Of a stretch of 32,484 nt of DNA, positions 3,588-25,236 are shown piece by piece. The notes below the pieces were generated by a model that saw only the letters and a program-made list of their open reading frames with translations, did no database searches and was not told where the DNA came from. Numbering within the stretch: position 1 is the stretch's first letter; each line of letters begins with the position of its first letter. A program made the position numbers and the translations under genes. Location: IMG/VR virus record IMGVR_UViG_2548876858_000013; one strand, 5' to 3'. Source of the stretch: a virus. Lineage: Duplodnaviria > Heunggongvirae > Uroviricota > Caudoviricetes.

Positions 3588-3859
3588 GTATTCGTATTGA
3601 AATTGGCGAACGTTATGTCGTTACCAGTGACAGCTTTCAGTTTATTCTCCACGAGAAAAAGAGAGCTGAAAGCGGTAAAAACGCCGGTCAGGAATGGCTG
3701 GCGGTGGTTGGTTATTACCCGAAATTAAGCCAGCTCGTTTCCGGCCTGATGCATCACGATATTCTGACCGGAAGCGCAAAGTCTTTTGCTGATTTAAACG
3801 CGCAGGTTGAGCAACTCAGCAAGCGTTGTTCAGAGGCTTTTGGCTCATATGGCCGTTAA
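3584..3859 (+). CDS. Hypothetical early protein preceding gene A
   Basis: 91-aa ORF, start overlaps the upstream stop (ATGA), GGAG upstream. Confidence 0.55.
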   Translation: MSIRIEIGERYVVTSDSFQFILHEKKRAESGKNAGQEWLAVVGYYPKLSQLVSGLMHHDILTGSAKSFADLNAQVEQLSKRCSEAFGSYGR

Positions 3860-6125
3860 AGCCTCCGGGCGTTTTGTCCCTCCGTCAGCATTTGCCGCAG
3901 GCACCGGTAAGGCGTTTACCGGTGCTTATGCATGGAACGCGCCACGCGAGGCTGTCGGGCGCGAAAGACCCCTTACACGTGACGAGATGCGTCAGGTGCA
4001 AGGTGTTTTATCCACGATTAACCGCCTGCCTTACTTTTTGCGCTCGCTGTTTACTTCACGCTATGATTACATCCGGCGCAATAAAAGCCCGGTGCACGGG
4101 TTTTATTTCCTCACAGCCACTTTTCAGCGTCGTTTATGGCCGCGCATTGAGCGCGTGAATCAGCGCCATGAAATGAACACCGACGCGTCGTTACTGTTTC
4201 TGGCAGAGCGTGACCACTATGCGCGCCTGCCGGGAATGAATGACAAGGAGCTGAAAAAATTTGCCGCCCGTATCTCATCGCAGCTTTTCATGATGTATGA
4301 GGAACTCTGCGATGCCTGGGTGGATGCCCATGGCGAAAAAGAATCGCTGTTTACGGATGAGGCGCAGGCTCACCTGTATGGTCATGTTGCTGGCGCTGCA
4401 CGTGTTTTCAATATTTCCCCGCTCTACTGGAAAAAATACCGTAAAGGACAGATGACCACGAGGCAGGCATATTCTGCCATTGCCCGCCTGTTTAACGATG
4501 AGTGGTGGACTCATCAGCTTAAAGGCCAGCGTATGCGCTGGCATGAGGCGTTACTGATTGCTGTCGGGGAGGTCAATAAAGACCGTTCTCCTTATGCCAG
4601 TAAACATGCCATTCGTGATGTGCGTGCACGCCGCCAGGCAAATCTGGAATTTCTTAAATCGTGTGACCTTGAAAACAGGGAAACCGGCGAGCGCATCGAC
4701 CTTATCAGTAAGGTGATGGGCAGTATTTCTAATCCTGAAATTCGCCGGATGGAGCTGATGAACACCATTGCCGGTATTGAGCGTTACGCCGCAGCAGAGG
4801 GTGATGTGGGGATGTTTATCACGCTGACCGCGCCGTCAAAGTATCACCCGACACGTCAGGTCGGAAAAGGCGAAAGTAAAACCGTCCAGCTAAATCACGG
4901 CTGGAACGATGAGGCATTTAATCCAAAGGATGCGCAGCGTTATCTCTGCCATATCTGGAGCCTGATGCGCACGGCATTCAAGGATAATGATTTACAGGTC
5001 TACGGTTTGCGTGTCGTCGAGCCACACCACGACGGAACGCCGCACTGGCATATGATGCTTTTTTGTAATCCGCGCCAGCGTAACCAGATTATCGAAATCA
5101 TGCGTCGCTATGCGCTCAAAGAGGATGGCGACGAAAGAGGAGCCGCGCGAAACCGTTTTCAGGCAAAACACCTTAATCGGGGCGGTGCTGCGGGGTATAT
5201 CGCGAAATACATCTCAAAAAACATCGACGGCTATGCACTGGATGGTCAGCTCGATAACGATACCGGCAGGCCGCTGAAAGATACTGCTGCGGCTGTTACC
5301 GCATGGGCGTCAACGTGGCGCATTCCGCAATTTAAAACGGTTGGTCTGCCGACAATGGGGGCTTACCGTGAACTACGCAAATTGCCTCGCGGTGTCAGCA
5401 TTGCTGATGAGTTTGACGAGCGCGTCGAGGCTGCACGCGCCGCTGCAGACAGTGGTGATTTTGCGTTGTATATCAGCGCGCAGGGCGGGGCAAATGTCCC
5501 GCGCGATTGTCAGACTGTCAGGGTCGCCCGTAGCCCGTCGGATGACGTTAACGAGTACGAGGAAGAAGTCGAGAGAGTGGTCGGCATTTACGCGCCGCAT
5601 CTCGGCGCGCGTCATATTCATATCACCAGAACGACGGACTGGCGCATTGTGCCGAAAGTTCCGGTCGTTGAGCCTTTGACTTTAAAAAGCGGCATCGCCG
5701 CGCCTCGGAGTCCTGTCAATAACTGTGGAAAGCTCACCGGTGGTGATACTTCGTTACCGGCTCCCACACCTTCTGAGCACGCCGCAGCAGTGCTTAATCT
5801 GGTTGATGACGGTGTTATTGAATGGAATGAACCGGAGGTCGTGAGGGCGCTCAGGGGCGCATTAAAACACGACCTGCGAACGCCAAACCGTCAGCAAAGA
5901 AACGGAAGCCCGTTAAAACCACATGAAATTGCACCATCGGCCAGACTGACCCGGTCGGAAAGAATGCAAATTACCCGTATCCGCGTTGACCTTGCTCAGA
6001 ACGGTATCAGGCCGCAGCGATGGGAGCTTGAGGCGCTGGCGCGTGGCGCGACCGTAAATTATTACGGGAAATCTTTCAATTATCAGGTCGCTGATGAGTG
6101 GCCTGGATTTTTGTTACCCATTTGA
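3849..6125 (+). CDS. A: Rolling-circle replication initiation endonuclease (P2 gpA-like)
   Basis: Long ORF 3807..6125; start may be the ATG at 3849 (MAVKASG...) or 3807. Contains an HUH-like motif (PHWHMMLF, about 5038-5060) and a paired-tyrosine motif (GYIAKYISK, about 5195-5220) characteristic of phiX174/P2-type Rep proteins; P2 gene A position. Confidence 0.85.
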   Translation: MAVKASGRFVPPSAFAAGTGKAFTGAYAWNAPREAVGRERPLTRDEMRQVQGVLSTINRLPYFLRSLFTSRYDYIRRNKSPVHGFYFLTATFQRRLWPRIERVNQRHEMNTDASLLFLAERDHYARLPGMNDKELKKFAARISSQLFMMYEELCDAWVDAHGEKESLFTDEAQAHLYGHVAGAARVFNISPLYWKKYRKGQMTTRQAYSAIARLFNDEWWTHQLKGQRMRWHEALLIAVGEVNKDRSPYASKHAIRDVRARRQANLEFLKSCDLENRETGERIDLISKVMGSISNPEIRRMELMNTIAGIERYAAAEGDVGMFITLTAPSKYHPTRQVGKGESKTVQLNHGWNDEAFNPKDAQRYLCHIWSLMRTAFKDNDLQVYGLRVVEPHHDGTPHWHMMLFCNPRQRNQIIEIMRRYALKEDGDERGAARNRFQAKHLNRGGAAGYIAKYISKNIDGYALDGQLDNDTGRPLKDTAAAVTAWASTWRIPQFKTVGLPTMGAYRELRKLPRGVSIADEFDERVEAARAAADSGDFALYISAQGGANVPRDCQTVRVARSPSDDVNEYEEEVERVVGIYAPHLGARHIHITRTTDWRIVPKVPVVEPLTLKSGIAAPRSPVNNCGKLTGGDTSLPAPTPSEHAAAVLNLVDDGVIEWNEPEVVRALRGALKHDLRTPNRQQRNGSPLKPHEIAPSARLTRSERMQITRIRVDLAQNGIRPQRWELEALARGATVNYYGKSFNYQVADEWPGFLLPI

Positions 6126-6385
6126 GTAAAAATGCAGCGTGATTTTATATGCCTTTGAATGGATTATGCGAAGCGCCTCTAAGGCAGATGAGGAGCAATA
6201 GCATGCTGAAGTAGAAGGCTAAATTGTATTGAATCGCTAGCATGTAATTTAAGGCAGCTATTTGATTCGAGTCATAAAAGAGCATCTATTTCGGCTAATA
6301 AAACCATTGCGAGTGACCTTTTGTCGAAGCATAATTCATCTCGAGCGAAGTCTTGCTAGTCTTTCATCGGAATGATGACAGGCGC

Positions 6386-6415
6386 AAAAAAACCACCCTG
6401 GCAGGTGGTTTTTTT
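6386..6415. terminator. Bidirectional intrinsic terminator-like hairpin
   Basis: AAAAAAACCACC / loop CTGGCA / GGTGGTTTTTTT: an A-tract and T-tract flanking a GC stem; 13 nt downstream of the minus-strand small ORF stop and about 260 nt downstream of gene A. Confidence 0.6.
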
Positions 6416-6427
6416 GTTTGAAGCATA

Positions 6428-6541
6428 CTAAAGAATAATACTTACATGGATATTACTGACGTTTACTGACAAACCACTTGGACTACCATATGGATAGCCA
6501 AAGAGGGCCAGAACGAGAATGCAGTAATAGCACTTCTTCAT
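6428..6541 (-). CDS. Small hydrophobic protein (37 aa), candidate small membrane peptide
   Basis: Minus-strand ORF MKKCYYCILVLALFGYPYGSPSGLSVNVSNIHVSIIL, translated by hand. Near-consensus RBS GGAGGAGAT immediately upstream of the ATG and a hairpin terminator just downstream. Below the 60-aa cut-off of the ORF track. Confidence 0.4.
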   Translation of the reverse strand: MKKCYYCILVLALFGYPYGSPSGLSVNVSNIHVSIIL

Positions 6542-7112
6542 ATCTCCTCCTGTAAGCAGAGGGCAATTTCCGCCGATATATGCGCTTCTGAGGCGGAGTT
6601 ACTATTTAGCGAAGTCTTGCCCTGAAATAATGCTCTGTTTAAACGCAAAGTGATCTGGCATATCACCGAACAGAGAGCCTGAACAACACAACATATAGTA
6701 TGTCGTTGTTTCTGGTTGCATTTTATGTTGTGTAATACTGGTTTTGCATCAAGGATGTTTGAGCTTTTTTTGATATAGCTCAAAGTAAAAAGCAGGGACT
6801 ACGGATGATAAGGTATTGAAAGCAATGTAAATTTTTTAAAGTTATTGGTGGCTAAAAAATGCACGGTTTCAATATGGCGGACTTAAATAAGCAATTAAAA
6901 AAGTCATAAATATCACTAAAATCATGGTGTTACGTTTTTTTGTGGGAGCTGCGGTGACGCTTAAGTTGATTTGTCATTAAATAAGCCGTGCATGCAACAA
7001 GTGAATGTTTTTGCATGCGTCGGGGATGCCCGTTCCAGCTGCTCGCGGTCAGAGCTGGTGCGGATCCATAGTATCTATGCAACTGCATTAAAACCGCCAC
7101 ATGAAGCGGGCG

Positions 7113-7131
7113 GGCGAGGCGGGGAAAGCAC
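7113..7131. other. cos site (P2-type 19-nt cohesive end GGCGAGGCGGGGAAAGCAC)
   Basis: Exact 19-mer that I recall as the P2 cohesive end and start of the P2 genome, followed here by TGCGCGCT as I recall for P2; sits in a GC-rich patch within otherwise AT-rich DNA between A and Q. Confidence 0.65.
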
Positions 7132-7355
7132 TGCGCGCTCCATTAACGACCATTACATAATACTATTAGCCTATGAATCGAGTCATGAGATGTTATCTTT
7201 ACGATTCAGGCGAGTGCTTTCGTTACGATGAGTTAGTTTAAGCACACTATCTGCACAAAAAATAATCTGTTGAAGCGATTCATCATTCCTAACGCTCTAG
7301 AGTCTTAAATAAAAATATGTAAAATGCGTAAAATTTTCTGAATTATGGATCAGCT

Positions 7356-8438
7356 ATGCTTGGAACTTCATCACAAAGAGCTATTTCAGTACAACATGTT
7401 GATTTAAATGTAAAGTGTTGGGTCGTTAGACCTGGGATTAAGTATAGATATTTTGCAGACTTCCTTGAACGCAATATGGTTGCTACTGCTCACTTGGATA
7501 GGTTAAGTCCAGATCAAATTGACTTTAATGATGAAATTAACCATGAAAATATTAATCAAAAGGTTGATGGGTTAGATACTATTGGTTCAAGAAATATTCA
7601 TACCCAAATTGAAAATTTCCTCATAGATATGCAGGTCGGTGATGTTGTTTTCACTTTGTCAGGTGATATGGTTGTTCCTGGAGTTATTGCATCTTCCGCG
7701 TATTTTGAGCGTGAATGTTTAGGTAATAATGAAGGGTTTCATGTAAGACGTAGAGTCACATGGGGAGAGCCAGTTCGCAGACGAGAGATTCCATTAGCTC
7801 TTCAGAAATCGTTTACTGCATACCAGACCGTATTCTCTTTGGGCGGGAAGTCAGAAGAAGTACTGCATTGGTTAATGTCATTCTTTATAACGGATAATAT
7901 TTTCTGTACTAGCTTAAGAGTCGAGCAAGCAGAAGCCATTCGGCATCATACTCTTAAGCAGCTGGCTGAGCTGGTCGATAGAGTGCAGGTACTTGCGCTA
8001 TTAATTGGCGAAGAGTTTGATGGCGAGTATACAAACGAAGTTGTTCAGTTTGAGATGGAAAGACTTTCTAATAATGGAGAGTTATCCTTGACTGCTCAAC
8101 AAATGTTGATGTCTCCGGGGGATGTTTGGCTACAATTTAAAACAAATAATAGAAAGGCCGGAATTGCGTTTATGTTAATTATGGGGGCCATTTTTAATCA
8201 TGATGTAGCCTTCGCTTCAACGGTTGATAATCGTATAAGTGAGGAACTTCGATCTCATATTGAAGGGAAAAAAGAGGTTGCAATGGATGGATTAAACTTT
8301 GATAGAGTTTCTCAAGTTCTAGAGTTGCGTTTAAAAAGACAAAATAGAGGCTTTGTTTCTGCTCGTCCAACGAACCGTGAGATCGGACAGGGGATCAATT
8401 TCCCTGAAGATGGTGATGCGAGGCATGCGAGTGACTAA
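7356..8438 (+). CDS. Hypothetical cargo protein, 360 aa, soluble; first gene of a two-gene operon
   Basis: Long ORF in AT-rich DNA; weak RBS (GGAT), so the true start could be downstream. No nucleotidyltransferase GS..DxD motif and no clear HEPN or PD-(D/E)xK motif seen by eye. Confidence 0.7.
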   Translation: MLGTSSQRAISVQHVDLNVKCWVVRPGIKYRYFADFLERNMVATAHLDRLSPDQIDFNDEINHENINQKVDGLDTIGSRNIHTQIENFLIDMQVGDVVFTLSGDMVVPGVIASSAYFERECLGNNEGFHVRRRVTWGEPVRRREIPLALQKSFTAYQTVFSLGGKSEEVLHWLMSFFITDNIFCTSLRVEQAEAIRHHTLKQLAELVDRVQVLALLIGEEFDGEYTNEVVQFEMERLSNNGELSLTAQQMLMSPGDVWLQFKTNNRKAGIAFMLIMGAIFNHDVAFASTVDNRISEELRSHIEGKKEVAMDGLNFDRVSQVLELRLKRQNRGFVSARPTNREIGQGINFPEDGDARHASD

Positions 8439-8440
8439 CT

Positions 8441-9130
8441 ATGAACTTTGAATTTGTAAAAGAACACTGGCTGATAATAGGCATGCTATTCATAGCATGT
8501 CTATTATTAATTTTAAAATTCAAAGATATTTACAGAACACACGATCAGTTTAATAACGTCGTGATGTCATTGTGCGCTGTTTTGACACTTGTGTGGGGAG
8601 GATATACTTTTGATGTTTTGCACCAAAGGGATAAGGCAGAAGCTGATCTTATAGAGTTAAGAAATAGAATTAGAAATACAGAATCGACATTTTTTAATGT
8701 TGACGTTAATGTTGTTAAAATCGATGATGTGTTTTATATAAAGCCTATTGTGACTATTAGGAATAACAGTAATGAGCGAATTTATGTGAAGCTTAATAAC
8801 AAGTCCCTTGCTGTTAGTCGTGTTTTATCGGCCGGTGCAAAGCAAGTCGCTACGGAAGTTTTTTATCCAAATTATTATGAGGAGTTGGCTGTTCTTAATG
8901 AAGAAAGTAGCTCGCAAGGAAAAGCTAAAAATATACCTTTATATGACATATCCGTTCCTATCTCTGCTGAAAGACGCTTGAACTATCTTGTTTCGACAAA
9001 AGAAAAAGGAATGTATTATGTAACATTTAGTGCTGAGGCAATGAACGAAGATGGCTCGCCTGTTTCTAAATACATAAATGGGAAAAAATCTATATGGTTT
9101 TCTTCTTCATATATTGAAGTTAAAGATTGA
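8441..9130 (+). CDS. Hypothetical cargo membrane protein, 229 aa, two N-terminal TM helices plus a beta-rich-looking soluble domain
   Basis: ATG 2 nt after the upstream stop (TAACTATG). Hydrophobic segments WLIIGMLFIACLLLIL and VVMSLCAVLTLVWGGYTF; the remainder is rich in alternating hydrophobic/polar stretches. AT-rich. Confidence 0.7.
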   Translation: MNFEFVKEHWLIIGMLFIACLLLILKFKDIYRTHDQFNNVVMSLCAVLTLVWGGYTFDVLHQRDKAEADLIELRNRIRNTESTFFNVDVNVVKIDDVFYIKPIVTIRNNSNERIYVKLNNKSLAVSRVLSAGAKQVATEVFYPNYYEELAVLNEESSSQGKAKNIPLYDISVPISAERRLNYLVSTKEKGMYYVTFSAEAMNEDGSPVSKYINGKKSIWFSSSYIEVKD

Positions 9131-9225
9131 ATTTCTATTAAACCATATAGTAATTGAAGGTGTTGGGGGTTAATCTTGCCTGGATTGCATAGAATCACGC
9201 CGCCTGGAGACGGCGCTAAGGGTAC

Positions 9226-10254
9226 TTAATTAGATTCTAGACTGTAATCTTTAAAGCGGATGACCTCCTGACCGAGCCAGCCGTTTATCTCGCGGATCCT
9301 GTCCTGTAACGGGATAAGCTCATTGCGGACAAAGACCTTTGCCACTTTCTCAATATCACCCAGCGACCCGACGTTCTCCGGCTTGCCGCCCATCAACTGA
9401 AAGGGGATGCGGTGCGCGTCCAGCAGGTCAGCGGCGCTGGCTTTTTTGATATTAAAAAAATCGTCCTTCGTTGCCACTTCACTGAGCGGGATAATTTTAA
9501 TGCCGTCGGCTTTCCCCTGTGGGGCATAGAGAAACAGATTTTTAAAGTTATTGCGGCCTTTCGACTTAACCATGTTTTCGCGAAGCATTTCGATATCGTT
9601 GCGATCCTGCACGGCATCGGTGACGTACATGATGTATCCGGCATGTGCGCCATTTTCGTAATACTTGCGGCGGAACAGCGTGGCCGACTCATTCAGCCAG
9701 GCAGAGTTAAGGGCGCTGAGATATTCCGGCAGGCCGTACAGCTCCTGATTAATATCCGGCTCCAGCAGGTGAAACACGGAGCCGGGCGCGAAGGCTGTCG
9801 GCTCGTTGAAGGACGGCACCCACCAGTAAACATCCTCTTCCACGCCACGGCGGGTATATTTTGCCGGTGAGGTTTCCAGTCTGATGACCTTACCGGTGGT
9901 GCTGTAACGCTTTTCCAGAAATGCATTACCGAACACCAGAAAATCCAGCACAAAGCGGCTGAAATCCTGCTGGGACAGCCACGGATGCGGGATAAATGTC
10001 GAGGCCAGAATATTGCGTTTGACGTAAATCGGGGAGCTGTGATGCACGGCAGCACGCAGGCTTTTTGCCAGACCGGTAAAGCTGATTGGTGGCTCATACC
10101 ATCTGCCGTTACTGATGCACTCGACATAATCCAGAATGTCACGGCGGTCGAGTACCGGCACAGGCTCGCCAAAGGTGAATGCCTCCATTTTCGGGGCGCT
10201 GGCGGTCATTTTTTTTGCCGCAGGTTGCGGTGTTTTCCCTTTTTTCTTGCTCAT
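9226..10254 (-). CDS. Q: Portal protein (P2 gpQ-like)
   Basis: 342-aa ORF, leftward, next to the terminase gene; matches P2 Q position and approximate length. Confidence 0.9.
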   Translation of the reverse strand: MSKKKGKTPQPAAKKMTASAPKMEAFTFGEPVPVLDRRDILDYVECISNGRWYEPPISFTGLAKSLRAAVHHSSPIYVKRNILASTFIPHPWLSQQDFSRFVLDFLVFGNAFLEKRYSTTGKVIRLETSPAKYTRRGVEEDVYWWVPSFNEPTAFAPGSVFHLLEPDINQELYGLPEYLSALNSAWLNESATLFRRKYYENGAHAGYIMYVTDAVQDRNDIEMLRENMVKSKGRNNFKNLFLYAPQGKADGIKIIPLSEVATKDDFFNIKKASAADLLDAHRIPFQLMGGKPENVGSLGDIEKVAKVFVRNELIPLQDRIREINGWLGQEVIRFKDYSLESN

Positions 10255-12026
10255 CAGTAAAACTCCAGAATGGTGGATGTCAGCGGGGTGCTGATACCGG
10301 CGGTGAGTGGCTCATTTAACAGGGCGTGCATGGTCGCCCAGGCGAGGTCGGCGTGGCTGGCTTCCTCGCTGCGGCTGGCCTCATAGGTGGCGCTGCGTCC
10401 GCTGCTGGTCATGGTCTTGCGGATAGCCATAAACGAGCTGGTGATGTCGGTGGCGCTGACGTCATATTCCAGACAGCCACGGCGGATGACGTCTTTTGCC
10501 TTGAGCACCATTGCGGTTTTCATTTCCGGCGTGTAGCGGATGTCGCGCGCGGCGGGATAGAACGAGCGCACGAGCTGGAACACGCCGACACCGAGGCCGG
10601 TGGCATCAATACCGATGTATTCGACGTTATATTTTTCGGTGAGTTTGCGGATAGATTCCGCCTGGGTGGCAAAGTCCATGCCTTTCCACTGGTGACGCTC
10701 AAGTATTCTGAATTTGCCACCGGCCACCACCGGCGGTGCCAGTACCACGCATCCGGCGCTGTCGCCACGGTGTGACGGGTCGTAACCAATCCATACCGGA
10801 CGGGAGCCGAACGGATTGGCGGCAAACGGCGCATAGTCTTCCCATTCTTCCAGCGTGTCGACCATGCAGCGTTGCAGCTCCTCGAACGGGAACACCGACG
10901 CCTTGTCGTCAACAAATTCACACATGAACAGGTTTTTAAAATCGTCGGCGCTGTTTTCACGTTTGAGCTGCTCAATGTCGAACAGTGTGCAGCCACCTTT
11001 CAGGGCGTCCTCAATGGTGACAATCTGCCGCCACTGGCCGTCCGCACAGAGAAGACCTCCGGCAAGTGCGTTATGACTGACGTCGATTTCCACGCGTTCA
11101 GCGGCGCTGGCGCGTCCCCGGTTAAACAGTTCACCGGACCAGAACGGATAGGCGTCGTGCGCCAGCGTGGACGGGGTGGAGAAATAGGTCGAGCGCAGGT
11201 GACTCTGTGAGGCCATACCTGATGCCACCTTACGCAGTACCTGAAAATTCGGGATCCAGAAAATCTCGTCGACGTACAGGTCGCCGTTATGGCTCTGCGC
11301 GGTGTTGGAGTTGGTGCCGAGAAAAATCAGTTTTGCGCCGTTATTGCCCAGGACAATCGGGTCACCGGTCAGGTCAACGTCAACCAGCCGGGCAAAGGCG
11401 ATGATGTATTCGCGGAACACATACGCCTGTGTTTTACTGGCCGACAGAAAAATCTGGTTATGACCGGTTTTCAGGGCGCGCAGCAGCGCCTCGCGGGAAA
11501 AATAAAACGTCGCGCCAATCTGGCGGGATTTCAGGATATCGCGGATGCGGTGCTCAAGCCCGGCGCGATACCAGTGCAACTGATATTCGAAAGACTGCTC
11601 AAAGAAAATCTGCTCCAGCTTTTCGATGGCTTCGTCACTGAAAAAATTCTTTTTCGGTTTGCGACGCCCGCCTTTGTTGCGGTTAGCGACGTTCGGATTA
11701 AGGTCTGCCTCGTTGCCGGTCTGGCTGTAGCGGTTGACCCGTGCCAGTCGTTCAATCTGGCGTCCCAGCAGGTCAATTTCCTTGAAGTCACCGCCGGTTT
11801 TCTGCGGTTTGATGATGAGCCGGGTCAGCCGCGCTTCCAGACTCATTTCGACACGGCTGATGGGGGCAACGCTGTCCCAGCCGTCGCGCTGTTTCCAGCT
11901 CTGCACCGTCGGGCGTTTCATCTGCAACATGGCGGCAATCTGCGGCACGGAAAACCCCTGCCAGTACAGCAGCGCCGCCTGACGACGCGGGTCGTGTAAA
12001 AGGGTGGTGTCTGTGGTGATGGTCAT
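10254..12026 (-). CDS. P: Terminase large (ATPase) subunit (P2 gpP-like)
   Basis: Start taken as the ATG at 12024-12026 with GAGG five nt upstream, giving 590 aa (recalled P2 gpP length); the ORF track start at 12056 is a TTG. Stop overlaps the Q start by 1 nt. Confidence 0.9.
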   Translation of the reverse strand: MTITTDTTLLHDPRRQAALLYWQGFSVPQIAAMLQMKRPTVQSWKQRDGWDSVAPISRVEMSLEARLTRLIIKPQKTGGDFKEIDLLGRQIERLARVNRYSQTGNEADLNPNVANRNKGGRRKPKKNFFSDEAIEKLEQIFFEQSFEYQLHWYRAGLEHRIRDILKSRQIGATFYFSREALLRALKTGHNQIFLSASKTQAYVFREYIIAFARLVDVDLTGDPIVLGNNGAKLIFLGTNSNTAQSHNGDLYVDEIFWIPNFQVLRKVASGMASQSHLRSTYFSTPSTLAHDAYPFWSGELFNRGRASAAERVEIDVSHNALAGGLLCADGQWRQIVTIEDALKGGCTLFDIEQLKRENSADDFKNLFMCEFVDDKASVFPFEELQRCMVDTLEEWEDYAPFAANPFGSRPVWIGYDPSHRGDSAGCVVLAPPVVAGGKFRILERHQWKGMDFATQAESIRKLTEKYNVEYIGIDATGLGVGVFQLVRSFYPAARDIRYTPEMKTAMVLKAKDVIRRGCLEYDVSATDITSSFMAIRKTMTSSGRSATYEASRSEEASHADLAWATMHALLNEPLTAGISTPLTSTILEFY

Positions 12027-12199
12027 GAATACCTCGCCGTGATGAATACACGGCAAGGCTACTGAGTCGCGCCCTGCGATTCGCTAAGGTGCTGTTGTGT
12101 CAGTGATAAGCCATCCGGGACTGATGGCGGAGGATGCGCATCGTCGGGAAACTGATGCCGACATGTGAATCCTCTAATCACTATTCAGGACTCCTGACA
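12027..12199. promoter_or_regulatory. Divergent late promoter region for the P-Q and O-N-M-L operons, inferred by position
   Basis: Intergenic region between divergently transcribed P and O, as in P2. I searched for an exact TGT-N12-ACA activator site and did not find one. Confidence 0.35.
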
Positions 12200-18297: not shown

Positions 18298-19083
18298 TTA
18301 TGAGTGGTTTTTATTTGATGCTTTGTATTCTAAAACCTTCTTATTGGCGTAAAGGAATTTTGTATATGACAGGAATATAAGCAGACCTGAAATGAAATAG
18401 GTTAGGGATATTATTAATAATGTTTTTCTGTGGCTGTTATTATCTTTAATCTCCTGACTTAACCATTCGGAGTCCTCCTTGTTTAGCTGTAAGAGCTTAT
18501 TGCAGGCGATCTCGGGAAGTGTGTCTTTTATAAATACGTTTTGCAGACTCTTGCAATCGGCAAGGCTATAAGTTTTATTAAATTCAACCGTTTTATTTTT
18601 GAAGGATAAAAGAACTTTGTCACTATAAACATAGTACATCATATTTTTATATGGTATACCTATGGCATCCCTTACTATAGCGGATTGTTCATTGTGTATA
18701 TAACATGCGAAGAGAATATAAATAATACTGGCCAGAATTACAATTATTGTTTTAATTATGTGTGGTGGTTTTGTTATGTCACCCCAGATGCGAGTAAGGA
18801 AAAAATACGATGTTTTTAGTTTTCCATCAATCAGTCCCTGCTGTATCATTCTCACATTTTCAATGCCTGATACATTGATTCCGTTAATTATTTTAAATAG
18901 TTGAATGTCGCGCCACTCGCGGTCAAGTCTTTTTAATTTTTTGTCTGAATATCCAAAATTGAAATAATGTGCAATAAGCCTCATAAGGTTACTTTTACCA
19001 AAGCTAAAAAATGCTAATACTGCAAAGCTACAAAGGAAAAAAACGATTAGCCCCCACACATTAGTCACATTATAGCTGACCAT
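18298..19083 (-). CDS. Hypothetical cargo membrane protein, 261 aa, three predicted TM helices
   Basis: Strong RBS (AAGGAG six nt upstream of the ATG at 19081-19083); very AT-rich; hydrophobic segments near the N-terminus (VWGLIVFFLCSFAVLAFFSF), middle (IIKTIIVILASIIYILFACYI) and C-terminus (LLIISLTYFISGLLIFLSY). Sits at the S-V variable locus. Confidence 0.75.
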   Translation of the reverse strand: MVSYNVTNVWGLIVFFLCSFAVLAFFSFGKSNLMRLIAHYFNFGYSDKKLKRLDREWRDIQLFKIINGINVSGIENVRMIQQGLIDGKLKTSYFFLTRIWGDITKPPHIIKTIIVILASIIYILFACYIHNEQSAIVRDAIGIPYKNMMYYVYSDKVLLSFKNKTVEFNKTYSLADCKSLQNVFIKDTLPEIACNKLLQLNKEDSEWLSQEIKDNNSHRKTLLIISLTYFISGLLIFLSYTKFLYANKKVLEYKASNKNHS

Positions 19084-24537: not shown

Positions 24538-25236
24538 TTATATTTTTCCATGCTTTTCACCGTCAAATCGAATCATGCTAGGATCAAGAAAATAAATCAA
24601 ATCAATTAACGCATGTTGTATTCTGATTAGCCTTTCTTTATAAGGCTCGATATTTTTTGTCATATTTATCACTTCATTGTTTAAATCTAAAAAAAATGGT
24701 TCATTGACAAAGCAATTTTCCTTTGTGAAACCGCCGTAACCTATGCAATCAAATCCAGCATCTGTTGATATCAACATCTTTTCCGCAATAGCTCTCTGCT
24801 CTCCTATGAAAAACATAAAATACTGACCAAAGGCGTCTGTTTGGATTAATGAGTTAATATTGTTCTGTAATCTAATAAACTCCCTCATTTTTTTATTTTT
24901 TTCTAGACTAAGGTATTGAATGTCTATGCGGGCAGCTTCTGTCCATGCAAAGAACTGGGAAAAAAGAAAAACCGTATTTTTGATAACATAATCTTGTTGG
25001 CGCTTACTCCCATTATGATAAAACTCTTCAATAAACCCTAATTCTAATATGTTATAAATGCGGCTTTGTAAGTCTGAAGCTGAGCGAATTAACGGTTCAA
25101 TATAGTACTGATGTTTTCTCCTTACATCCAGTGTTTCATTGAGCTTGTTTATTCTATTCTGATTATAGGTAGATATAGCAATAGAGATTATAGATATTGC
25201 ACCACCAATAAGGCTTGAAATTAATGCCACACTCAT
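24538..25236 (-). CDS. Hypothetical cargo protein, 232 aa, N-terminal TM helix plus soluble domain
   Basis: RBS AAGGA seven nt upstream of the ATG at 25234-25236; very AT-rich; N-terminal hydrophobic segment VALISSLIGGAISIISIAISTY; at the G-FI variable locus. Confidence 0.7.
   Translation of the reverse strand: MSVALISSLIGGAISIISIAISTYNQNRINKLNETLDVRRKHQYYIEPLIRSASDLQSRIYNILELGFIEEFYHNGSKRQQDYVIKNTVFLFSQFFAWTEAARIDIQYLSLEKNKKMREFIRLQNNINSLIQTDAFGQYFMFFIGEQRAIAEKMLISTDAGFDCIGYGGFTKENCFVNEPFFLDLNNEVINMTKNIEPYKERLIRIQHALIDLIYFLDPSMIRFDGEKHGKI

Follow-up and report, generated by a model that had tools for sequence, protein, structure and literature searches.

A membrane protein and its predicted PUA-like partner form a candidate anti-phage cassette in the gpA-gpQ hotspot of a P2-like Escherichia coli prophage

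Introduction

The RexA/RexB operon of the lambda prophage consists of two genes, the first for a cytoplasmic protein related to nucleic acids and the second for RexB, a small inner-membrane protein with four transmembrane (TM) helices. Here we analyze a pair with the same layout in a P2-like (Peduovirus) prophage of Escherichia coli (IMG/VR virus record IMGVR_UViG_2548876858_000013, Caudoviricetes), whose 32,484 nucleotides are referred to as the window throughout: gene 1 (7356..8438, + strand) encodes a cytoplasmic partner protein of 360 residues belonging to DUF8426 (PF28530), and gene 2 (8441..9130, + strand, ATG to TGA) encodes an inner-membrane protein of 229 residues. We consider it likely that the pair is an anti-phage (defense) module, and RexA/RexB offer the best functional analogy for the mechanism that we favor. 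There is no sequence relation, the cassette having no match to the RexAB profiles of PADLOC; RexB lacks a large extramembrane domain and RexA is not PUA-like.

Type IV restriction enzymes use PUA-like domains as readers of modified bases (PMC7897488, PMC7641849), and EVE-HNH enzymes read modified cytosine (PMC7897488). In the PUA-Cal-HAD/Metis system of E. coli, a PUA-like pocket senses free m6-dAMP from the phage-degraded host chromosome (PMC12871103; bioRxiv 10.1101/2025.11.05.686725); this system and type II Metis, composed of a HAD protein and the three-TM protein MisC, are both E. coli defenses that use a modified nucleotide as danger signal. Gene 1, whose N-terminal half is predicted to be PUA-like, differs from them in carrying neither a calcineurin nor a HAD domain and in lacking a match to the Rst_Hydrolase-3Tm profile. 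Moreover, the TM protein of type II Metis itself binds the ligand on the cytoplasmic side, whereas in the cassette the reader domain would reside on a separate soluble protein. Unlike the EVE/YTH modification-dependent enzymes (VcaM4I, McrB N-domains), gene 1 has no attached or adjoining nuclease or NTPase, its partner being a membrane protein; the EVE census revealed no EVE-plus-TM context (PMC7641849).

With regard to the membrane component, Kiwa and Cap15 invite comparison. Kiwa is a membrane-embedded KwaA-KwaB supercomplex which senses phage-induced membrane changes (PMC11785009). It resembles the cassette in combining a membrane protein with a soluble partner without nuclease domain, and its membrane part senses infection at the envelope; it differs in the polytopic nature of KwaA, the reversed gene order and the lack of sequence similarity. 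Cap15, an effector of the cyclic-oligonucleotide-based anti-phage signaling system (CBASS), shares with gene 2 two N-terminal TM helices, an all-beta C-terminal domain and a similar overall size. However, Cap15 possesses a ligand-binding barrel and a CD-NTase partner, whereas the gene 2 domain is modeled as immunoglobulin (Ig)-like and is probably periplasmic, and no sequence match connects the two. Neither protein of the cassette matches the PADLOC profiles for RexAB, Kiwa, Zorya, type II Metis or the TM partners of retrons and defense-associated reverse transcriptases (DRT), the only PADLOC match of gene 1 being PDC-S02.

Results

Pairing, genomic setting and distribution

Gene 2, which starts 2 nt past the stop codon of gene 1, is a real conserved gene and no chance open reading frame (ORF). 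Close homologues from Escherichia, Citrobacter, Enterobacter and Pantoea make up 16 clusters (E <= 8e-70), and at E <= 1e-3 a 50%-identity library contributes 62 representatives with identities of up to 50%, of which 20 reach E <= 1e-10. A further search starting from a diverse alignment added only five sequences. The family is unnamed, and its members keep the reading frame and long invariant motifs.

For the analysis of gene pairing, profiles of both families were run on all ORFs of 43 fetched sequences. Wherever a gene 1 homologue was uncut in these sequences, it was followed directly on the same strand by a homologue of gene 2, at a spacing between an 8-nt overlap and a 33-nt gap and mostly of <= 4 nt. 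Relative to the window copies, both proteins lose identity in parallel (72/65, 54/48, 41/45, 36/25 and 20/21 % for genes 1 and 2, respectively), and the pairing is still present in Vibrio vulnificus at 24% identity for gene 1 and 20% for gene 2. By this arrangement we read genes 1 and 2 as translationally coupled and as forming one unit. Distant gene 2 homologues also occur alone (P0092, P0103 and P0126), on contigs that contain no DUF8426-like sequence in any frame; their neighbors are ordinary genes, e.g. those for YkuD, flavodoxin and alcohol dehydrogenase. These solo homologues, which have a single TM helix, stem from metagenome contigs (L010 1361-2002, L043 750-1364 and L044 696-1316), show ~21-25% identity and carry the motif FDHEKFKN in their N-terminal tails.

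The cassette lies within a stretch of low GC content (37-40% over ~6.0-9.2 kb, compared to 55-60% in the core genes) that contains two + strand ORFs, gene 2 being the second. Upstream of it is the gene for the replication endonuclease gpA (3807..6125) and downstream are those for portal Q (9226..10254, - strand) and terminase P (10254..12056, - strand), followed by scaffold O and the tail genes. The P2 cos cohesive-end sequence GGCGAGGCGGGGAAAGCAC was found as an exact 19-nt match at 7113..7131 (+ strand; 0 matches in 100 shuffles), a position at which phage records start or end, and it marks the left edge of a variable island. Similarity to the cassette-less P2-like phage 9W breaks off at 7139 and restarts at 9244 inside Q, with 186 bp in 9W in place of the island; the 2.1 kb of the cassette are therefore a replacement of the sequence between cos and Q. 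The island (7140..9243, ~37-40% GC), which extends from cos to the 3' end of Q, holds genes 1 and 2 as its only cargo and no further gene. With cos upstream, the cassette falls on the same side as Q and occupies the left end of the genome as packaged; on the P2 map, old and tin are on the gpA side. As a variable insert between gpA and Q that adjoins cos, the island agrees with the definition of the gpA-gpQ hotspot (PMC9122126), from which many validated anti-phage systems are known (Rousset et al. 2022, PMC9122126).

In E. coli, the cassette is of rare and patchy occurrence, with 7 carriers among 5,426 complete genomes; both proteins remained without tblastn match in phage records (50,697) and plasmids (72,556), and a scan of genome contigs with gene 1 resulted in 3 loci. 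The same pair was found in the A-Q interval of distant P2-like phages (gpA 36% and portal 68% identical), inside lambdoid tail modules, at a prophage end past the tail-fiber genes and beside icd in Serratia. Furthermore, it occurs in a P4-like satellite (Ash, integrase, D5 primase; L032 1503-15487), with genes for an FRG protein and a DEAD/ResIII helicase following, and directly beside reverse-transcriptase (RT) genes in E. coli Ec-U9-2 and Pseudomonas grimontii. Such a spread over phages, a satellite and RT neighbors is the distribution that would be expected of mobile defense cargo. In the hotspots of sister P4-like satellites, six of eight randomly chosen unknown loci proved protective on testing (PMC13586616).

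Some of these neighborhoods deserve a separate description. In the satellite, the FRG-domain protein and the helicase, which comprises 1,060 residues, may constitute a second defense system. In E. coli Ec-U9-2 (L001 1529-3711) a helix-turn-helix protein and an RT-family protein are encoded immediately upstream of the cassette, and in the unrelated host P. grimontii (L016 3801-5719) a 322-residue protein and an RVT_1 protein take this position. A lambdoid element with the cassette in its tail module (L003) carries a pyocin/colicin-type DNase and immunity pair (1-293) just upstream of the tail genes.

Gene 2: one conserved TM helix, a stalk and an Ig-like domain

The preliminary description of this DNA, which was made from the sequence alone, proposed two hydrophobic helices (about residues 10-26 and 40-57) followed by roughly 170 beta-rich residues. 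Both helices were recovered, as Kyte-Doolittle peaks in 19-residue windows at residues 9-27 (2.33) and 39-57 (1.50) and as helices 10-30 and 34-79 of an AlphaFold2 model built from a 59-sequence alignment (mean predicted local distance difference test, pLDDT, 90.3). The beta-rich part is likewise present in the model, with 11 strands within residues 83-227, and is limited to ~145 residues, while 22 residues of the proposed region (58-79) form a helical stalk.

From the N-terminus, the protein comprises TM1 (residues 10-26; 8468..8518, + strand), hydrophobic and poorly conserved; the loop KFKDIYRTHDQF (8519..8554, + strand), predicted to be cytoplasmic and bearing the juxtamembrane motif H-D-x-F-N-N, which is conserved even in the solo homologues; TM2 (residues 39-57; 8555..8611, + strand) with a near-invariant W52, G53-G54 and Y-T-F-D; the stalk helix (residues 58-79; 8612..8677, + strand), continuous with TM2 in the model; and the Ig-like beta-sandwich domain (residues 83-227; 8687..9121, + strand), predicted to be periplasmic. 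Because 41 of the 59 aligned relatives have a single TM helix and only 18 have two, TM1 is not a feature of the family; it appears dispensable, TM2 being the helix which the family shares. Across 18 distinct paired gene 2 sequences, conservation is highest in the stalk (0.68), followed by TM2 (0.62), the loop (0.59), the Ig domain (0.55) and TM1 (0.30), the least conserved segment, and the tightest constraint therefore acts on the conserved TM helix and the stalk. A conservation of these two segments above that of the Ig domain is unusual for a passive anchor and would fit helix-helix assembly or transmembrane signaling. TM1 was also considered as a signal peptide, which was rejected with respect to an N-region without positive charge in most two-TM members and the lack of a cleavage-type c-region.

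The membrane topology was derived from lysine/arginine (K/R) and net-charge counts over the 59-member alignment. In the 18 two-TM members, the 0-11 residues before TM1 contain on average 0.17 K/R and the loop between TM1 and TM2 contains 2.67 K/R. In the 41 one-TM members, the N-terminal tail has a mean length of 24 residues with 3.2 K/R (maximum 10) and a net charge of about +1, and the 15 residues past the conserved TM helix carry a net charge of about -0.9. Combined with the positive-inside rule, these counts therefore indicate that the conserved helix runs from N-in to C-out. Judged by charge counts alone, the stalk and the Ig domain thus probably face the periplasm, and the cytoplasmic part of the E. 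coli protein would be confined to the 12 residues of the loop between the two TM helices. The predicted orientation is the reverse of that of Cap15.

According to the model, the C-terminal part of gene 2 is a generic Ig-like beta-sandwich on a helical stalk. The domains named for it include the accessory domains of transglutaminase and GH2 enzymes, B. subtilis IPI, ApaG, RbmA, Spo0M, TRAP-alpha and arrestin N-lobes; among the top 60 matches, no Cap15 chain was present. We conclude that it is not a barrel for nucleotide binding, and likewise no transporter or morphogenesis protein. A resemblance to the luminal domain of TMEM106B and to LEA-2-type single-pass proteins is confined to the fold: many unrelated Ig-like domains match gene 2 equally well or better than TMEM106B, and Pfam gave no match to LEA_2. 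Foldseek against the viral structures of BFVD delivered only weak Ig-like or uncharacterized matches with TM-scores of ~0.3. At the sequence level, gene 2 is not recognized by Pfam, PADLOC, PHROGs or NCBIfam, and the number of PADLOC families at E <= 1 is zero. The sub-threshold hits to DUF4131 (E 0.005, on the TM hairpin), TsiR (E 0.0015) and phrog_8170 were dismissed as meaningless noise. The PDB was also searched with sequence profiles of both families and of the gene 1 N-domain, with no credible result; the best matches were MotB, with E 0.0086 on an acidic stretch of low complexity, and LRRC8A (E ~1), and both were rejected.

Gene 1: a DUF8426 protein with a predicted PUA-like fold

PF28530 is precomputed on a protein identical to gene 1 (P0017) and on most of its homologues, and the RefSeq name of gene 1 is 'DUF8426 domain-containing protein'; our own Pfam scan of gene 1 returned no match, PF28530 included. 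Gene 1 also matches phrog_10226, whose function is unknown. The PADLOC profile PDC-S02 aligned to residues 20-206 at profile positions 3-185 of 324 (E 2.4e-12). Gene 1 and PDC-S02, which is a single-gene defense candidate of PADLOC, accordingly have the N-terminal domain in common, but only the first halves of profile and protein match, and the C-terminal halves do not align. Searches of Pfam, PADLOC and NCBIfam revealed no nucleotidyltransferase, CBASS or other enzyme match, which agrees with the statement of the preliminary description that the locus is not a canonical CBASS.

In the AlphaFold2 model of gene 1 (pLDDT 84.3, predicted template-modeling score, pTM, 0.81), the N-terminal domain (~residues 10-190; 7383..7925, + strand) adopts a PUA-like (EVE/YTH/ASCH) fold. 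Superposition on PUA-like modified-base readers gave scores of 9.5 for PH1033, 9.3 for the EVE-HNH enzyme VcaM4I, 8.4-6.8 for YTH domains, 6.3 and 5.3 for McrB N-domains and 5.8 for THYN1. The assignment is a link at the level of the modeled fold only: 12 gene 1 N-domains had no Pfam match to EVE, YTH or ASCH at E <= 10, and the PDB profile search with the N-domain matched no PUA-like chain. W22, R25, F36, H46, D48, F88, D96 and W136 are invariant, and W22, F36, H46, F88 and W136 are candidates for an aromatic pocket that would accommodate a modified base.

The remainder of gene 1 is composed of a helical hairpin and an alpha/beta domain (~residues 191-340; 7926..8375, + strand), the latter with an invariant MSPGD-W motif at residues 252-258; beyond the N-domain, neither structure nor sequence matching returned a relative. 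Residues 343-360 have pLDDT values < 50, yet P350 and D352 are nearly invariant within this disordered tail, whose acidic motif FPEDGD (residues 349-354; 8400..8417, + strand) is a candidate docking motif. Residues 266-286 are unlikely to form a TM helix, given a family mean of 1.59 for the best 19-residue Kyte-Doolittle value, with members down to 0.83, and the burial of this segment in the compact model.

Discussion

Since precedents exist for each half of the cassette, namely PUA-like readers and small TM effectors, we favor a Rex-like scheme. Small TM proteins beside cytoplasmic sensors are generally read as abortive-infection effectors (PMC9122126). In this scheme gene 2 would be the inner-membrane subunit of a translationally coupled accessory cassette in the cos-proximal gpA-gpQ hotspot, and gene 1 would recognize a modified base that is specific to infection and occurs in phage DNA or in a free nucleotide (e.g. 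from degraded host DNA). Once triggered, gene 1 would act on gene 2, whose conserved TM helix and stalk could oligomerize and compromise the inner membrane, so that the infection is aborted. This complete chain, with gene 1 as modified-base sensor and gene 2 as executing membrane effector, is put forward tentatively and has, in our estimate, less than even prospects of being correct.

Several observations weigh against it. Gene 1 has no recognizable catalytic or signal-generating domain. The predicted periplasmic orientation leaves only 12-25 cytoplasmic residues of gene 2 for the reception of a signal, and a simple pore model does not explain a conserved periplasmic domain of 145 residues. 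The existence of solo homologues speaks against a protein that is lethal in itself. A search upstream of gene 1 revealed no consensus sigma-70 promoter, and our literature search found no experiment on the cassette. Altogether, the periplasmic Ig domain, the solo homologues and the absence of an enzyme in gene 1 fit a simple pore model poorly, and a reverse, Kiwa-like model was therefore kept alive.

In this reverse model, which resembles Kiwa or Zorya, gene 2 would act as sentinel: it would sense envelope perturbation or the phage tail or injection apparatus, or tether gene 1 at the site of DNA entry, and gene 1 would be the effector that binds incoming nucleic acid via its PUA-like domain. 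A conserved periplasmic domain joined to a conserved TM helix suits transmembrane signaling, the predicted N-in/C-out course of this helix agrees with it, gene 1 resembles KwaB in lacking a nuclease domain, and solo, apparently harmless gene 2 homologues are readily accommodated. However, the PADLOC profiles of KwaA/KwaB and ZorA/ZorB show no sequence relation to the cassette, gene 2 has just one or two TM helices, the topology was deduced from charge counts alone, and there is no evident way in which an enzyme-less PUA-like protein would stop a phage. We regard this model, the main rival of the Rex-like scheme, as possible, if rather unlikely.

A role outside defense, as lysogenic-conversion or envelope-modifying moron or as an addiction pair of the toxin-antitoxin style that stabilizes the island, is to be considered unlikely as well. 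About a quarter of the cargo of the P2 hotspot is not related to defense, e.g. partition systems and cytolethal distending toxin (PMC9122126), neither protein matches the profile of a validated defense system, and the solo homologues stand beside housekeeping-type genes. On the other hand, the cassette recurs in several different defense hotspots beside RT, helicase and FRG genes, gene 1 has the PUA-like reader domain in common with a PADLOC defense candidate, and the rarity of the cassette in E. coli is usual for defense cargo.

Superinfection exclusion, in which gene 2 alone would block phage DNA entry from the periplasm in the manner of T4 Sp/Imm or P22 SieA and gene 1 would be accessory or independent, appears decidedly improbable. 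It would agree with a small, prophage-encoded inner-membrane protein with predicted periplasmic domain, with the existence of solo homologues and with the location of one homologous cassette within a tail gene module, and the E. coli prophage TM protein YmfE has been proposed to act in this way (bioRxiv 10.64898/2026.09.05.749240). However, an irrelevant gene 1 would not be expected to be strictly coupled to gene 2 in one operon and to diverge in parallel with it in every copy on mobile elements, and gene 2 resembles no phage protein family of known function.

Finally, a Cap15-like CBASS or other cyclic-nucleotide effector, in which gene 2 would be a cytoplasmic ligand-binding barrel and gene 1 the source of the nucleotide signal, is largely refuted and survives only in the two N-terminal TM helices and subsequent all-beta domain of the E. 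coli protein, as no CBASS, Pycsar or effector profile is matched, gene 1 is modeled as PUA-like rather than as a cyclase, most relatives lack TM1 and the beta domain is predicted to be periplasmic. The preliminary description had likened gene 2 to Cap15-like effectors and suggested that it may be a membrane-disrupting effector controlled by gene 1. Its general picture of a membrane protein with a partner gene outside canonical CBASS holds, whereas the likeness to Cap15 does not withstand the comparison: the presumed barrel is modeled as an Ig-like sandwich, predicted to be periplasmic, TM1 is missing in 41 of the 59 relatives, and the top 60 structural matches did not contain Cap15. Homology of gene 2 to a transporter or a phage-morphogenesis protein, which would have contradicted an effector function, was not found in family libraries, PDB profiles or Foldseek searches.

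The candidate cassette fits a known kind of system, short two-gene prophage defense cassettes with a membrane subunit; new are the parts and the unusual predicted topology. No paper was found which names DUF8426 or the RefSeq accessions, PDC-S02 appears in surveys only, and the pair is not described in the hotspot papers, DefensePredictor, the EVE census or the context analysis of PUA-Cal-HAD; nor was the architecture of a PUA-like reader with a TM-stalk-Ig membrane protein found in the literature. If protective, the cassette would be a compact addition of 2.1 kb to the P2/P4 hotspot repertoire and would give two orphan families, DUF8426 and the unnamed gene 2 family, their first functional context. 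In that case, PUA-like danger-signal sensing, as described for m6-dAMP in PUA-Cal-HAD/Metis, would also extend to an output coupled to the membrane. The question that follows from the predicted periplasmic orientation is whether information passes from cytoplasm to membrane, in the manner of Rex, or starts at the envelope and reaches a nucleic-acid binder, in the manner of Kiwa. A more far-reaching and doubtful proposal is a new class of immunity module carried by phages and satellites, in which a single highly conserved TM helix would link a cytoplasmic PUA-like reader of modified bases to an Ig-like protein on the periplasmic side of the inner membrane. Such a module would combine envelope events, namely phage docking or DNA entry, with the recognition of modified nucleic acid, without nuclease, NTPase or nucleotide-signal enzyme.

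Additional observations in the window

Promoter, terminator, Rfam and repeat scans of 6000-9400 gave nothing above chance. The ~1 kb past gpA (6125-7112, GC ~40%) contains no convincing ORF; in part, it matches other P2 records at 94% identity. Within this stretch, a T run follows a hairpin at ~6385-6415, and an Rfam match to RNAI at 6384-6494 (- strand) remained sub-threshold with 26 bits versus a gathering score of 47 (E 0.057).

Two further low-GC islands were noted among the tail genes. An ORF at 24538..25236 (- strand, 232 residues, N-terminal TM helix) lies in an island of 32% GC between a tail-fiber assembly gene and the sheath gene FI; it shows a weak PADLOC match to RTasTM, the TM partner of DRT (E 1.1e-6), with no adjoining reverse transcriptase. 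We take this site to be the Z/fun position of P2. An ORF at 18298..19083 (- strand, 261 residues), for which Pfam and PADLOC gave no match, displays several hydrophobic segments by eye and lies in an island of 38% GC between gpS-like and gpV-like tail genes. This third moron site of the prophage presumably corresponds to the orf30 position of P2.

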